DNA from: Candidatus Velamenicoccus archaeovorus
GTDB lineage: Bacteria; Omnitrophota; Gorgyraeia; Velamenicoccales; Velamenicoccaceae
Length of the DNA stretch: 32,000 nucleotides
Assembly: GCF_004102945.1 (NCBI RefSeq)
Contig: NZ_CP019384.1
Span: 1,200,001-1,232,000, forward strand
Direction of reading: 5' to 3'
A program made the position numbers and the translations under genes. This document shows, one piece after another, positions 21,417 through 28,257 of this stretch. Each line of letters begins with the position of its first letter. The first letter of the stretch is position 1. The notes under the pieces are model-generated. The model made no database searches and was not told the origin of the DNA. It was given only the letters and a program-made list of their open reading frames with translations.

Positions 21417-22484
21417 TTACACGAATGTATCGACGACTTTCAAAAATGCCTCGACGACTTTGGGATCGAACTGCGAACCGCTGTTCTTCTTGATCTCCTC
21501 GACAGCCTCTGACTTCATCAAGCCCACCTTGCGATACGGCCGGGCCGACACCATCGCGTCGTAGCTGTCGGCGACGGTCATGATGCGTGCGCCCAGCGGG
21601 ATCTCTTCGCCTTTAAGCCCGTCGGGATAGCCCTTGCCGTCCCAACGCTCATGATGGTGTTTGACGATCGTGATGACGCTTTCCAGGAATTTTAGCGGCT
21701 CCAGGATCTGGGCGCCTTTCTCGGCGTGCTGCTTGATCTGGTTGAATTCATCATCCGTGAGGGCCGAAGGTTTGCTGAGCACATTATCGTGGACGCCGAT
21801 CTTGCCCAGATCGTGCAACTGACATGCGTCCCTGATATCATTGATATAGGAGGGGTCCACGTTCATCTGCCGCGCAATCGCTTCCGCATAACGCGTCACG
21901 TTGTCCGAATGCGAAAAGGTGTAATGATCGCGCGCATCGATCGCGTGCGCCAACGCCTTGATCGTGCGCATATATGTCTCTTTGAGATCCTCATAGAGAC
22001 GCGTCAAATTCTTCGTGCTCTCTTCGATGCGGCGCGCCAAAAGAAGATTCTGTTTCTGCAGCGCTATATTGCGCTCTTCGATCCCCTTGAGGGCGCGGCT
22101 GTTGTTAACGACGAATTTCCTGATCTCAAATGCCTGCTTGGCCTTGAAGTAAACCTCCTCGGACCTGAGCGGCTTGTAAAGATAATCGGTAGCGCCCAAT
22201 GCCAGAGACTCCTGGACAAGATTGGCCGTCTCGGTATAGCCCATGATGATGATAACCATGGCTTCATCCCTGTGGTGAAATTCACGCACGAGATAGCGGA
22301 CATCGAGGTCTTTAAGGCCGAGATCGATAAAAACGGCACCCGGCGTGTCTTGCTCATAAAACTGCAGGCCTACGCGCGCCGTCAGCGCCACCGTCACCTG
22401 ATAACCCCGCGTCGTCAGCGCCGTTTTGATCAAGGCGCAGCTTGCTTCATCACTATCGATCACCAAAACCTTCTGTTCGCTCAT
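21417..22484 (-). CDS. Response regulator with HD-GYP domain (predicted c-di-GMP phosphodiesterase, RpfG-like)
   Basis: The REC domain has an acidic pocket (VIDSDE), a phospho-acceptor context (VFIDLGL) and a conserved K (DYLYKPL). The HD-GYP domain has H-S-DNV, QLHDLGK and HHERWDGKGYPDGL. The start was moved to ATG 22484 (MSEQKVLVID), preceded by AAGGTG. Confidence 0.88.
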   Translation of the reverse strand: MSEQKVLVIDSDEASCALIKTALTTRGYQVTVALTARVGLQFYEQDTPGAVFIDLGLKDLDVRYLVREFHHRDEAMVIIIMGYTETANLVQESLALGATDYLYKPLRSEEVYFKAKQAFEIRKFVVNNSRALKGIEERNIALQKQNLLLARRIEESTKNLTRLYEDLKETYMRTIKALAHAIDARDHYTFSHSDNVTRYAEAIARQMNVDPSYINDIRDACQLHDLGKIGVHDNVLSKPSALTDDEFNQIKQHAEKGAQILEPLKFLESVITIVKHHHERWDGKGYPDGLKGEEIPLGARIMTVADSYDAMVSARPYRKVGLMKSEAVEEIKKNSGSQFDPKVVEAFLKVVDTFV

Positions 22485-22674
22485 TCGGACACCTTTGGTG
22501 GAATCTCCCGGGGTTCGCTCCCGAGGCAGCACCGCATTCCTCCCCGGTTTTTCCCGCTCCATTATCTTTTGTCCGGCGGGATCCCGCAAGGCAAGAAAAG
22601 CCGGGGATTCCTGCCGAGGGATTGAATCCTATTATACAAGGCTTAACGGCCTTGCCTACAAAAATCAGAAAGTT

Positions 22675-26823: not shown

Positions 26824-26883
26824 TCTCTCCTCTGCTCGGAACCCCTGCTTTCAGCAAAAAACAGGGAAAATCCGCCGGAAGGG

Positions 26884-28257
26884 TTACAGCGCGATCTCCG
26901 CCCCTGCCAGTCCCATCGCCTTGTGCAACAACTCGACGGAATCGGCACCGTCGATAGGGTTCTCGACAATGCTGAGACTGAATTGTATTTTCCTTTTGAC
27001 GTCGGCATTCTGGAACGTCGCCCGAAGCTTATCCTTGAACTGTTCGGCCACGTGTTCCGCCTGCCGTTTGTTCTTTTGGGGCAGGACGACGCCGAACACG
27101 CCATCCTCCAGCCGCCCCGCGCGGTCGATCTCCCGGATCGAAGACTTCAACAATACCGCAATCCTCGCCTGGACATCATCCGCTGCCGCGTCGCCATAAG
27201 CCCGGCGGTAATCCGGCATATTATTCACCACGACAGCCACAAAAGAACACGGCTCCTGCAGGGAGATGGCACGCAGGATCTCTTCTTCGAATCTGACCGT
27301 GATATAACGCTTATTAAAAAGCCCTGTCAGGGCATCCTTCACCTCCAGGTCCCGGACCTTGTGCGTCAGGTAGTCATTCTCGACGGCGATCGACAACTGC
27401 TTGGCAAAGATACCCATCAGCTCGATGTCATCGTTGGAAAACTTGAATTTATCCATCAAGTTGCCGATCGCGATGATCCCATGGGGCTTGCCCTGCATCA
27501 AGACCGGATACACCAGGAGGTTGCGTGCCCCGAGGATTTTCATGAACTCTTCACTGATACCGCCCTGGGTCGTATCGTCCACCTTCAAGAACGGCTTGGA
27601 GGCCGCCAAAAGATGAAACAACAAGCCGCTGCTGGAAGCCGTCATCAGACAACTGATCGTCTCCTCCCCAAGACCGTACTGTGCCGAAACTTCAAAACTC
27701 TCGTCTTTCTTAAAAATCAGGATCGCCAAAGCCGAATCCGCCATCTGGGCAAGCTTGGAAATCGTGACCTCATAGACGTCTTTGAGGTGAGCATTCTTGG
27801 TGATCAGGTTGCTGATCTGCAACAGGCCGTTCAAGGCGATCACCTGGCGGTTGATCTGGAGATTGATATCCTTGGTGCGCTCACCGTAGATCTTGAGCTC
27901 ATCCATGTTGCTTTTGATGCGCTGCGTCAGCTGATTCAAAGAATGGCTCAATTCGCCGATTTCGTCCTCGCGGGCAATGTTGATCTGGTGGCTGAGTTCG
28001 CCGGACGCGATGACCTTGACTTCAGAGTTAATCTCTATGATAGGATCAACGATGCGCTTGACAACGATAAAACCCAAAAGAGACATGATCACAACAGAAA
28101 AAATGATGACGAGAAGGTAATTTTTCGGCAGAAGGCTGGGAAAAACAAAATTCAGAAGCGCAAGGATGGGAATGATGGACATGAGGCAAAATGCGATGAT
28201 GAGCTGCGGCCTGAGGGACCTGGATGCGATCGACAATTTTTTAGATAAATTGGCCAT
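26884..28257 (-). CDS. Membrane HAMP-GAF-GGDEF protein with degenerate active site and retained RxxD I-site
   Basis: Has two TM segments, HAMP (...DEIGELSHSLNQL...), a GAF-like region and a GGDEF fold (DALTGLFNKRY). The signature is EDGVF instead of GG(D/E)EF, and the first metal Asp is replaced (VVVNNMP). REID lies 5 residues upstream of the signature. Start ATG 28257 follows GGAGAGAGG, so ORF-track start 28347 is rejected. Confidence 0.85.
   Translation of the reverse strand: MANLSKKLSIASRSLRPQLIIAFCLMSIIPILALLNFVFPSLLPKNYLLVIIFSVVIMSLLGFIVVKRIVDPIIEINSEVKVIASGELSHQINIAREDEIGELSHSLNQLTQRIKSNMDELKIYGERTKDINLQINRQVIALNGLLQISNLITKNAHLKDVYEVTISKLAQMADSALAILIFKKDESFEVSAQYGLGEETISCLMTASSSGLLFHLLAASKPFLKVDDTTQGGISEEFMKILGARNLLVYPVLMQGKPHGIIAIGNLMDKFKFSNDDIELMGIFAKQLSIAVENDYLTHKVRDLEVKDALTGLFNKRYITVRFEEEILRAISLQEPCSFVAVVVNNMPDYRRAYGDAAADDVQARIAVLLKSSIREIDRAGRLEDGVFGVVLPQKNKRQAEHVAEQFKDKLRATFQNADVKRKIQFSLSIVENPIDGADSVELLHKAMGLAGAEIAL

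Follow-up and report, generated by a model that had tools for sequence, protein, structure and literature searches.

The window analysed here is a 32,000-nt stretch of Candidatus Velamenicoccus archaeovorus, a member of the Omnitrophota (NZ_CP019384.1, 1,200,001-1,232,000), and all coordinates given below are those of the window. It contains a type IV pilus cluster, with every gene on the minus strand, in which the genes for the pilus motor are interleaved with genes for candidate components of cyclic di-GMP (c-di-GMP) signalling. In the direction of transcription the cluster runs from a membrane protein with HAMP, GAF and degenerate GGDEF domains (457 amino acids [aa]; 26884-28257) through a stand-alone MshEN protein of 149 aa (26374-26823), two PilB-type ATPases designated PilB1 (577 aa; 24545-26278) and PilB2 (571 aa; 22675-24390) and a receiver (REC)-HD-GYP protein (355 aa; 21417-22484) to the platform protein PilC (20193-21386). 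Our analysis indicates that c-di-GMP is probably read at this locus by one small protein, the stand-alone MshEN, together with a riboswitch in the leader of the pilin gene, and not by four protein domains.

The six genes had been recognized, with their domains, in an initial annotation made from the sequence alone, and each domain named there is called by Pfam above its cut-off; NCBIfam models also match the GGDEF, MshEN, PilB2 and REC-HD-GYP proteins. The genes are co-directional as described, and the spacers of 30-190 nt reported for them measure, in order from the GGDEF gene to pilC, 60, 95, 154, 190 and 30 nt. The statement that each gene has a Shine-Dalgarno sequence needs correction, since none is recognizable for PilB2, and those of PilB1 and the HD-GYP gene are weak. 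PilC is present (two Pfam T2SSF repeats, 229 bits; NCBIfam PilC models 438 and 420 bits, under their 700-bit cut-offs) but lies just outside the limits that the annotation had set for the cluster. A 585-nt intergenic region follows pilC, and then come the gene for the major pilin (19185-19607; Pfam N_methyl and NCBIfam matches, with a prepilin N-terminal methylation motif) and those for PilM, PilN, PilO, a PilP-like protein and the PilQ secretin (14647-18909, Pfam). The pilin probably starts at M9 of its open reading frame (ORF), which has AGGAGG ahead of it. The type IVa parts identified in the window by Pfam and NCBIfam are thus pilin, PilB, PilC, PilM, PilN, PilO, PilP and the PilQ secretin; the retraction ATPase PilT was not found in the window.

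Is this combination of genes a functional unit or a chance adjacency? When genomes were scanned at one per species, 502 of them proved to encode relatives of the 149-aa protein. From these, the best 80 loci were taken with 10-kb flanks (labels such as L002 denote loci among these relatives), their ORFs were matched to the window proteins, and conservation counts were restricted to loci spanning the relevant stretch. All 80 come from Omnitrophota-type metagenome-assembled genomes, though some carry other labels. The recurrent order is rodA, a radical SAM gene, degenerate GGDEF, 149-aa MshEN, PilB1, PilB2, REC-HD-GYP (not always present) and PilC, and the full set of six cluster genes is found in 32 of 43 loci whose sequence extends over both flanks. 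Where the stretch from MshEN to PilC is covered (52 loci), PilB1 is found in 52, PilB2 in 51 and REC-HD-GYP in 39; the GGDEF gene is present in 57 of 61 loci reaching rodA. This order is retained even though the GGDEF protein has diverged to a median identity to the window of 38% (values fall to about 30-40%) and rodA to one of 47%. Its persistence across species-level Omnitrophota loci shows that the adjacency is not due to chance, and the locus is a real conserved unit linking the type IV pilus motor to c-di-GMP components. We think it fairly likely that the cluster represents the core pilus operon (type IVa) of the Omnitrophota, equipped with its own c-di-GMP control unit.

The position between PilB2 and PilC appears to be a slot for c-di-GMP parts, because it may be occupied by REC-HD-GYP (39/52 loci), by a second MshEN protein or by a REC-GGDEF cyclase. 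The second stand-alone MshEN, with consensus motifs (LLGQ... and VLGE...), is found there in five loci (L039, L045, L052, L064 and L071). In L052 the slot (13919-19653 of that locus) holds in addition a canonical REC-GGDEF cyclase (RYGGEEF, RCVD I-site) and a 1383-aa GGDEF-AAA_16-HEAT (GGDEF-STAND) protein. The second small MshEN gene is restricted to loci that lack HD-GYP (5/11 vs 0/32; p = 0.0005, phylogeny ignored), and HD-GYP was never seen without the GGDEF gene (0/3 vs 32/40 with it; Fisher p = 0.013, phylogeny ignored).

The c-di-GMP site of MshEN domains consists of two 24-residue motifs linked by a 5-residue joint. In MshE the guanines are bonded by backbone amides at Gly11/Asp12 and Gly40/Asp41, ribose and phosphate by Gln32 and Gln61, with Leu triads stacked against the bases (PMC5013675). 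The changes G11L, G11I and G40I abolish binding by MshE, XpsE has lost binding via G11V and G40L among other changes, and the motif in MshE is specific for c-di-GMP (PMC5013675). Position 1 of a motif (p1) may be Arg, Lys or Leu, with hydrophobic residues there giving the tightest binding, and PilF's GSPII-B domain (Lys167, Leu196) binds c-di-GMP at 6 nM (PMC11731258). In the GSPII-A domain of PilF one motif is good and the other degenerate, and c-di-GMP is not bound.

The 149-aa protein matches Pfam MshEN (PF05157) at 68.2 bits (cut-off 23.1) and the NCBIfam c-di-GMP motif model NF053729 at 62.1 bits (cut-off 38) over model positions 1-53 of 53. Its motif I (residues 11-34) and motif II (residues 40-63) read QLGELLIERKIITAEQLQKALEYQ-RVNGG-LVGEILVQLGFSREEDIAQVLTAQ (window 26793-26635), and the contact residues G13, Q34, G42 and Q63 are all present. 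All 86 orthologues have Gly at p3 of both motifs; p24 is Gln in 83 of them for motif I and in 86 for motif II, and p1 of motif II is Leu (Leu40) in 81, which fits the extended consensus. The AlphaFold2 (AF2) model of the protein has a predicted local distance difference test score of 90.2 and a predicted template modelling (TM) score of 0.80. Its best Foldseek match is 5HTL, MshE with c-di-GMP (TM 0.78-0.83, root-mean-square deviation 2.3 A), followed by PilF GSPII domains (8PDK, TM 0.70-0.75) and the Xanthomonas PilB N-domain bound to PilZ (7LKO). The model and these matches give the expected four-helix-bundle N-subdomain and alpha/beta C-subdomain. Profile hidden Markov models and structure prediction therefore agree with the initial annotation that the protein is MshEN-like. 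We predict that it is a c-di-GMP receptor, and it is the sole candidate domain at the locus to keep the experimentally required residues.

Both ATPases likewise carry the MshEN-like N-domain that had been ascribed to them. PilB1 scores 458 bits with Pfam T2SSE, 71.5 bits with Pfam MshEN and 646 bits with TIGR02538, and PilB2 scores 438 bits with T2SSE and 84.1 bits with MshEN. The two are 46% identical, and their Walker A, Asp box, Walker B and Cys4 motifs are invariant. In the His box of PilB2 (residue 414) TGQ replaces TGH in 56 of 58 orthologues; PilB1 keeps the His in 67/67. Simply counting matches at key positions did not separate the three N-domains, each of which matches at 7-9 of 11, and was abandoned. 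The domains were judged instead at the positions for which there are mutational data, for the difference lies in which positions match. At p3, PilB1 has Gln9 and Ser38 and PilB2 has Met9 and Lys38; at p24 of motif II, where Gln is expected, they have Gly59 and Glu59, respectively. The orthologues behave alike: in PilB1, p3 is Gln, Thr, Lys or Ile in motif I and Ser in motif II, and p24 of motif II is Gly, while in PilB2 p3 is Met, Ile, Thr or Leu in motif I and Lys or Arg in motif II, and p24 of motif II is Glu or Gln. Gly at p3 was found in none of 67 PilB1 and none of 58 PilB2 orthologues. The two N-domains thus keep the MshEN fold but are probable, not certain, non-binders of c-di-GMP, the caution being due to the fact that all three N-domains pass the NCBIfam motif model.

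The HAMP-GAF-GGDEF protein starts at M31 of a longer ORF, only this part being covered by orthologues, and scores 43, 33 and 68 bits with Pfam HAMP, GAF_2 and GGDEF, respectively. Its N-terminus has two transmembrane helices joined by a loop of ~8 residues. As noted in the initial annotation, this strain has a degenerate signature with an RxxD motif five residues ahead of it, and REID-RAGRL-EDGVF can be read directly at 27135-27094. Comparison with PleD shows Val in place of D327, Pro in place of K332, Arg in place of N335, EDGVF in place of GGEEF and Gln in place of R390. Most orthologues keep the metal-binding Asp and Lys (FDIDNFK) and have the signature GDDEF, but the guanine-binding Asn and Asp are replaced, the position of PleD N335 being taken by His, Gln or other residues. 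Judged by these residues, the protein cannot make c-di-GMP, its A-site being dead. The family conserves the membrane anchor, the very short outside loop, HAMP, GAF and an LPE(K/R)NK(R/K)QA segment. The RxxD Arg, by contrast, is found in only 13 of 73 orthologues, the window's closest relatives among them, and is mainly Ser or Thr elsewhere (52/73), so a receptor function of the I-site is predicted to be lineage-specific at best. The protein found no match to PelD in a sequence search of the PDB, and we take its likeness to PelD to be one of architecture only.

The REC-HD-GYP protein starts at M36 and scores 54 bits with Pfam Response_reg and 139 bits with HD_5; it also matches the NCBIfam NosR-family response regulator phosphodiesterase model at 210 bits, under the 400-bit cut-off. 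The intact HD and GYP motifs reported for it are indeed there, HDxGK at residues 224-228 (LHDLGK from 223) and HHExxDGxGYP at 277-287 (HHHERWDGKGYP from 276), and a comparison of 41 sequences shows both motifs to be conserved, along with additional His and Asp ligands. We predict that it is a c-di-GMP phosphodiesterase. Whether it is also phosphorylation-gated, as proposed, depends on the organism considered. The receiver of this strain has D10, D12, the acceptor D54 and K104, with Gly at the Thr/Ser position, and gating is plausible here. The acceptor Asp is present in 16 of 41 orthologues, however, and is replaced in the other 25, by Lys or Arg in 21. Gating by phosphorylation may thus hold in this strain but does not look like a conserved design.

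The initial annotation combined these proteins into a scheme in which up to four protein domains (the stand-alone MshEN, both PilB N-domains and the GGDEF I-site) would read c-di-GMP in parallel, with the HD-GYP protein as a phosphorylation-gated eraser. There is something to be said for this: the three N-domains pass both the Pfam MshEN and the NCBIfam c-di-GMP-motif cut-offs, their Leu triads and the majority of their hydrophobic positions are retained, PilB1 has Arg at p1 of both motifs, and the present strain has both REID five residues before the degenerate GGDEF and the receiver acceptor Asp. Yet neither motif of either PilB has Gly at p3 in any orthologue, and bulky substitutions at these positions abolish binding by MshE; Gln at p24 of motif II has given way to Gly in PilB1 and Glu in PilB2; the RxxD Arg is missing from 60 of 73 GGDEF orthologues and the second I-site Arg, the equivalent of PleD R390, is Gln; and the receiver acceptor is lacking in 25 of 41 sequences. 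We accordingly regard four parallel readers as unlikely, the stand-alone MshEN being the only one of them that keeps the binding residues. The other element of the scheme, the lack of an obvious writer, stands: the locus has no cyclase, and a profile search of the window proteins found no second GGDEF, EAL or HD-GYP gene in the window.

A reader of another kind had been missed altogether, namely a predicted c-di-GMP-I (GEMM-I) riboswitch in the intergenic region that separates pilC from the pilin gene. Searched permissively, Rfam returned RF01051 as a full-length match on the gene strand at 20019-19935, with 25.6 bits against a gathering score of 35. In 13 of 16 related loci an aptamer above the gathering score is found in the equivalent place, at 38.5-65.2 bits (L013, 65.2; L021, 65.2; L029, 63.3; L006, 61.2; L022, 60.6; L012, 49.2; L005, 46.6; L004, 44; L010, 40.7; L017, 40.6; L015, 39.6; L002, 39.1; L008, 38.5; those of L021 and L006 are GGC variants). 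None above it was found in seven deeper loci scanned (L027, L030, L031, L032, L039, L042 and L056), and no other Rfam family gave a credible score in 18800-28500 at E values up to 5. A second c-di-GMP-I riboswitch (61.3 bits) is present in L022 at 13370-13449, ~4 kb downstream of the first.

Alignment to the relatives, together with RF01051, places the whole window aptamer at 19845-20055 on the minus strand, like the other features of this region. It consists of a 5' strand GAGUAAACCAUUC (20053-20041), a 45-nt multi-hairpin insertion in P1 (20040-19996) that separates the 5' strand from the tetraloop, a core from GAAAGAGUGGGGCACAAAGC to GGCAG (19999-19945), an 88-nt tandem insertion (19944-19857) that displaces the 3' strand, and the 3' strand with its tail, CCAGCU-GUCGAA (19856-19845). 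The low Rfam score is explained by the two insertions; the model aligned only a shorter part. An alternative alignment, which made this a decayed aptamer with two P1 mismatches and a 2-nt deletion, was rejected; L005, L012 and L013 place the true 5' strand 45 nt further upstream.

The P1 insertion, 32-90 nt long, is shared with L002, L004, L005, L007, L008, L012, L015, L018 and L019 and is absent from L006, L013, L021, L022 and L029. In minimum-energy folds its segment CCUCUUCUU pairs with the 3' half of the terminator described below, and the insertion may be part of the expression platform. The 88-nt insertion consists of two copies of a 44-nt hairpin unit, in the internal loop of the P2 3' strand; L081 and L082, independent metagenome assemblies of a sister strain (99% MshEN identity), have three copies (between about 16890 and 17030), with a compensatory G-to-A and C-to-U pair in the stem. 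The unit has no Rfam match and no further copy in the window or the 80 loci. A dispersed element was considered and rejected, the copies in this set being confined to the aptamer.

Upstream of the aptamer lies a conserved promoter-like site, TTGAAT-N16-(TG)TATACT (20075-20102), whose hexamers recur in L002, L004, L005, L006, L012, L013 and L019. Downstream of it is an intrinsic terminator-like hairpin, ACCUAUUCCC...GGGAAUAGG followed by U7 (19786-19829), which was read by eye from the sequence, a simple scan having missed it (loop >8 nt). The hairpin is conserved in L002, L004, L005, L081 and L082 and in the leaders of L006, L013, L021, L022 and L029. A second promoter-like site, TTGACA-N18-TAAAAT (19719-19748; 11 of 12 matches), lies between terminator and pilin gene and is conserved in L002, L005, L006, L012 and L013. 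Minimum free energy folding gave no consistent on- or off-switch, the predicted alternative pairings differing between loci. The pilin 5' untranslated region beyond the second promoter (19608-19718) has complementary segments, GCUUUACGCUU and GAGCGUAGAG, that are also found in L002, L005, L006 and L013 and match no Rfam family, which suggests that it holds a conserved leader structure.

Nucleotides 20, 47 and 92 of class I aptamers contact the ligand. In the window these are A20 (window 20052), A47 and U92 (19849), compared with G20, A47 and C92 in the orthologues; positions 20 and 92 were assigned by alignment to Rfam consensus structures and not from a solved structure. G20 was found in all 16 orthologous aptamers examined and in L081 and L082, and C92 in the orthologues wherever the tail is readable. 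L081 and L082 have G20, A47 and U92, and A20 was seen in the window assembly only. A numbering that puts the G-to-A change at position 19 was rejected: in the Rfam structures, G20 is the unpaired G immediately 5' to the G-C/U-A pair, and it must be unpaired because its Watson-Crick edge contacts the ligand (PMC6140456). In the RF03167 structure, C92 is the unpaired C ahead of the outer helix. Simple decay of the window aptamer is argued against by its 58-nt core, which matches that of L002 at 58/58 positions, against 73-92% identity in the flanks. Both the tandem insertion and U92 are real features of the lineage, since they recur in the independent assemblies L081 and L082 and the repeat hairpin has undergone a compensatory change.

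Could the signalling layer of this strain then read another cyclic dinucleotide, in place of c-di-GMP or in addition to it? The G20A mutant of the Vc2 riboswitch binds c-di-GMP at 53 nM and cyclic GMP-AMP (cGAMP) at 120 nM (PMC6140456), and the G20A/C92U mutant binds cyclic di-AMP (c-di-AMP; PDB 3MUV, PMC7288161). The window aptamer has both of these changes, A20 where the 16 orthologues, L081 and L082 have G20, and a U92 that recurs in two independent assemblies, and its core is as well preserved as stated above. We know of no report of a natural A20/U92 variant of a class I riboswitch. Some HD-GYP enzymes hydrolyse 3'3'-cGAMP. Several observations tell against a change of ligand: the MshEN motif is c-di-GMP-specific in MshE (PMC5013675), A20, confined to a single assembly, could have arisen by recent neutral change or by error, the 88-nt insertion splits the aptamer, which scores only 25.6 bits, the window revealed no synthase for another dinucleotide, and positions 20 and 92 come from a consensus alignment. 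A different or additional dinucleotide thus seems quite improbable. The narrower proposal that the V. archaeovorus aptamer has been retuned and not lost, so that the MshEN protein would read c-di-GMP in trans and the A20/U92 riboswitch c-di-AMP or cGAMP, is one that we put forward as a speculation of low probability.

The account that we favour, with moderate confidence, keeps c-di-GMP as the signal. Protein-level sensing would have moved out of the motor, the PilB paralogues having lost the Gly residues that make room for the guanine bases. The stand-alone MshEN protein would bind c-di-GMP and signal to the motor by contact with PilB1 and PilB2 or with the docking partners PilM and PilC; the action of FimX-PilZ on PilB in Xanthomonas offers a parallel for such input in trans. 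The REC-HD-GYP protein would hydrolyse c-di-GMP near the machine and so reset the signal, possibly under control by phosphorylation in this strain, the receiver being a pseudo-receiver in most of the phylum. The GGDEF protein is most likely a membrane-anchored sensor or scaffold that partners HD-GYP, as GGDEF proteins do with RpfG; this role fits best because HD-GYP was never seen without the GGDEF gene and because of the RpfG precedent. Finally, the GEMM-I riboswitch, with its own promoter and terminator, would couple pilin supply to the same class of signal.

A number of points weigh against this account, which was built from sequence, predicted fold and comparative genomics. In the predicted receptor, p1 of motif I is Gln (Gln11 in this strain) in 73 of 86 orthologues, outside the Arg/Lys/Leu set tested in the literature. 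PilB1 and PilB2 score 51.2 and 42.8 bits in the 53-residue NCBIfam c-di-GMP-motif model, above the 38-bit cut-off, and p3 of PilB1 motif II is Ser, a small residue outside the mutational data. The 80 loci were picked by MshEN similarity, and this choice explains in part the high conservation of the protein (identity to the window 63-100%, median 67%); the co-occurrence tests ignored phylogeny. The window aptamer falls short of the Rfam threshold and departs from the relatives at positions 20 and 92, the two that set ligand specificity. Because the second promoter lies after the terminator, some pilin transcription may escape control by the riboswitch. Lastly, no cyclase for c-di-GMP was found, in a search that covered the window only.

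We consider it very doubtful that the genes merely share an inherited adjacency without functional coupling, the 149-aa protein being a nucleotide-independent docking or assembly factor for PilB and the GGDEF and HD-GYP proteins serving unrelated signalling: synteny is just as strong for rodA and the radical SAM gene, which are probably unrelated to the pilus, and so is weak proof by itself in this phylum, and HD-GYP is missing from 13 of 52 loci and the GGDEF gene from 4 of 61, but the 149-aa protein has invariant residues at its ligand contacts (the three motif I exceptions at p24 apart), the HD-GYP slot elsewhere holds other c-di-GMP parts (a second MshEN or a REC-GGDEF cyclase), a c-di-GMP riboswitch lies in the same operon region, and the presence or absence of the GGDEF, HD-GYP and second MshEN genes is not mutually independent.

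How does the trans-acting MshEN account compare with known systems? MshE of Vibrio cholerae and PilF GSPII-B of Thermus thermophilus share with the 149-aa protein the fold, the 24-5-24 motif architecture and the Gly and Gln contacts, and motif II begins with Leu in PilF GSPII-B as it does here. The differences are that the predicted receptor is a separate protein and not the N-terminus of an ATPase, that the adjacent ATPases carry degenerate copies of the domain, and that motif I begins with Gln. Closer in logic are FimX-PilZ-PilB of X. citri and FimX-PilB of P. aeruginosa, in which a non-binding PilB N-domain receives c-di-GMP input through a docked receptor or adaptor (PMC8389850, PMC5595344). 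Like these, the present locus is proposed to have a PilB whose N-domain lacks c-di-GMP binding and a separate receptor; 7LKO is among the fold matches of the receptor, and FimX resembles the GGDEF protein in having a degenerate GGDEF domain (3HVA was matched). Unlike them, the adaptor would be an MshEN protein and not PilZ or a degenerate EAL protein, and it is encoded in the pilus operon.

In X. campestris the HD-GYP protein RpfG binds GGDEF proteins independently of cyclase activity and, with a PilZ protein, controls PilT and PilU (PMC3749722). A REC-HD-GYP regulator, GGDEF partners, a small c-di-GMP-binding adaptor and pilus ATPases are thus common to that system and the one proposed here. 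The Xanthomonas genes are dispersed, however, and involve a PilZ adaptor and retraction ATPases, whereas here a single operon encodes an MshEN protein and PilB-type ATPases. The DxD motif that RpfG requires in its GGDEF partners might correspond to DID at PleD D327/D329, which most orthologues of the GGDEF protein have (FDIDNFK) but the window protein (VVVNNM) does not.

A c-di-GMP riboswitch with a terminator directly ahead of a major pilin gene has a counterpart in Cdi-2-4, a demonstrated class II on-switch that precedes pilA1 of C. difficile (PMC6366702, PMC11656802); the window riboswitch differs in being class I (GEMM-I) and in having a second promoter after the terminator, A20, U92 and the 88-nt insertion. 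Similarly, Acinetobacter baylyi has two extension ATPases, PilB and TfpB, for one type IVa pilus (PMC11656802), as would be the case here. PilB1 and PilB2 are tandem paralogues, 46% identical, and neither reaches the cut-off of the NCBIfam TfpB model (partial scores of 421 and 452 bits vs 850); the TGQ His box of PilB2 is family-specific.

The individual parts are therefore of known kinds: MshEN receptor, HD-GYP phosphodiesterase, degenerate GGDEF scaffold, GEMM-I element before a pilin gene and paired extension ATPases. The initial annotation did not recognize the wiring as a described system, and we likewise did not find it in the PilB-cofactor, MshEN and Omnitrophota genome literature searched. 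Three features are undescribed in that literature: the receptor domain is split off from two motor paralogues whose own copies are degenerate, a single operon brings all of the parts together, and this operon is conserved across a phylum of nanobacteria that depend on hosts. The Omnitrophota, uncultured and for the most part ultra-small, are thought to be predators or parasites. Of their traits for contact with the host, type IVa pili are among the most widely retained (PMC10066038); how these pili are controlled is not discussed, and c-di-GMP, PilB and riboswitches are not mentioned, in the Omnitrophota genome literature searched.

The locus provides a compact, phylum-wide parts list for the control of Omnitrophota pili. 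It is also a natural test of the role of the PilB N-domain and of whether c-di-GMP sensing can be separated from the motor, since the predicted binding-competent domain and the motor-attached domains are encoded by separate, adjacent genes. The riboswitches form a series for GEMM-I ligand specificity, with G20/C92 in the relatives, G20/U92 in the sister assemblies and A20/U92 in this strain. Should the window aptamer prove to be both retuned and working, a single operon would read c-di-GMP by a protein and a different cyclic dinucleotide by an RNA.

The wider neighbourhood of the cluster is as follows. At its 5' end are mrdA, rodA and a TIGR03960 radical SAM gene, the last of these preceding the GGDEF gene. 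Downstream of PilQ come RNase G, obg, proB, proA, nadD, rpe, pgm, plsC, rpsA, tyrS and, at the window edge, a partial 16S rRNA gene (1-1367, minus strand; Rfam SSU_rRNA_bacteria, 1221 bits). In the deeper lineages L027, L030, L032 and L042 an rRNA operon follows pilC, replacing the pilin gene and pilMNOPQ. The pilus cluster of the window, ~13.7 kb from the GGDEF gene to PilQ, lies between the genes for the TIGR03960 radical SAM protein and RNase G (12678-31612), two genes that are frequent close neighbours in other bacteria.

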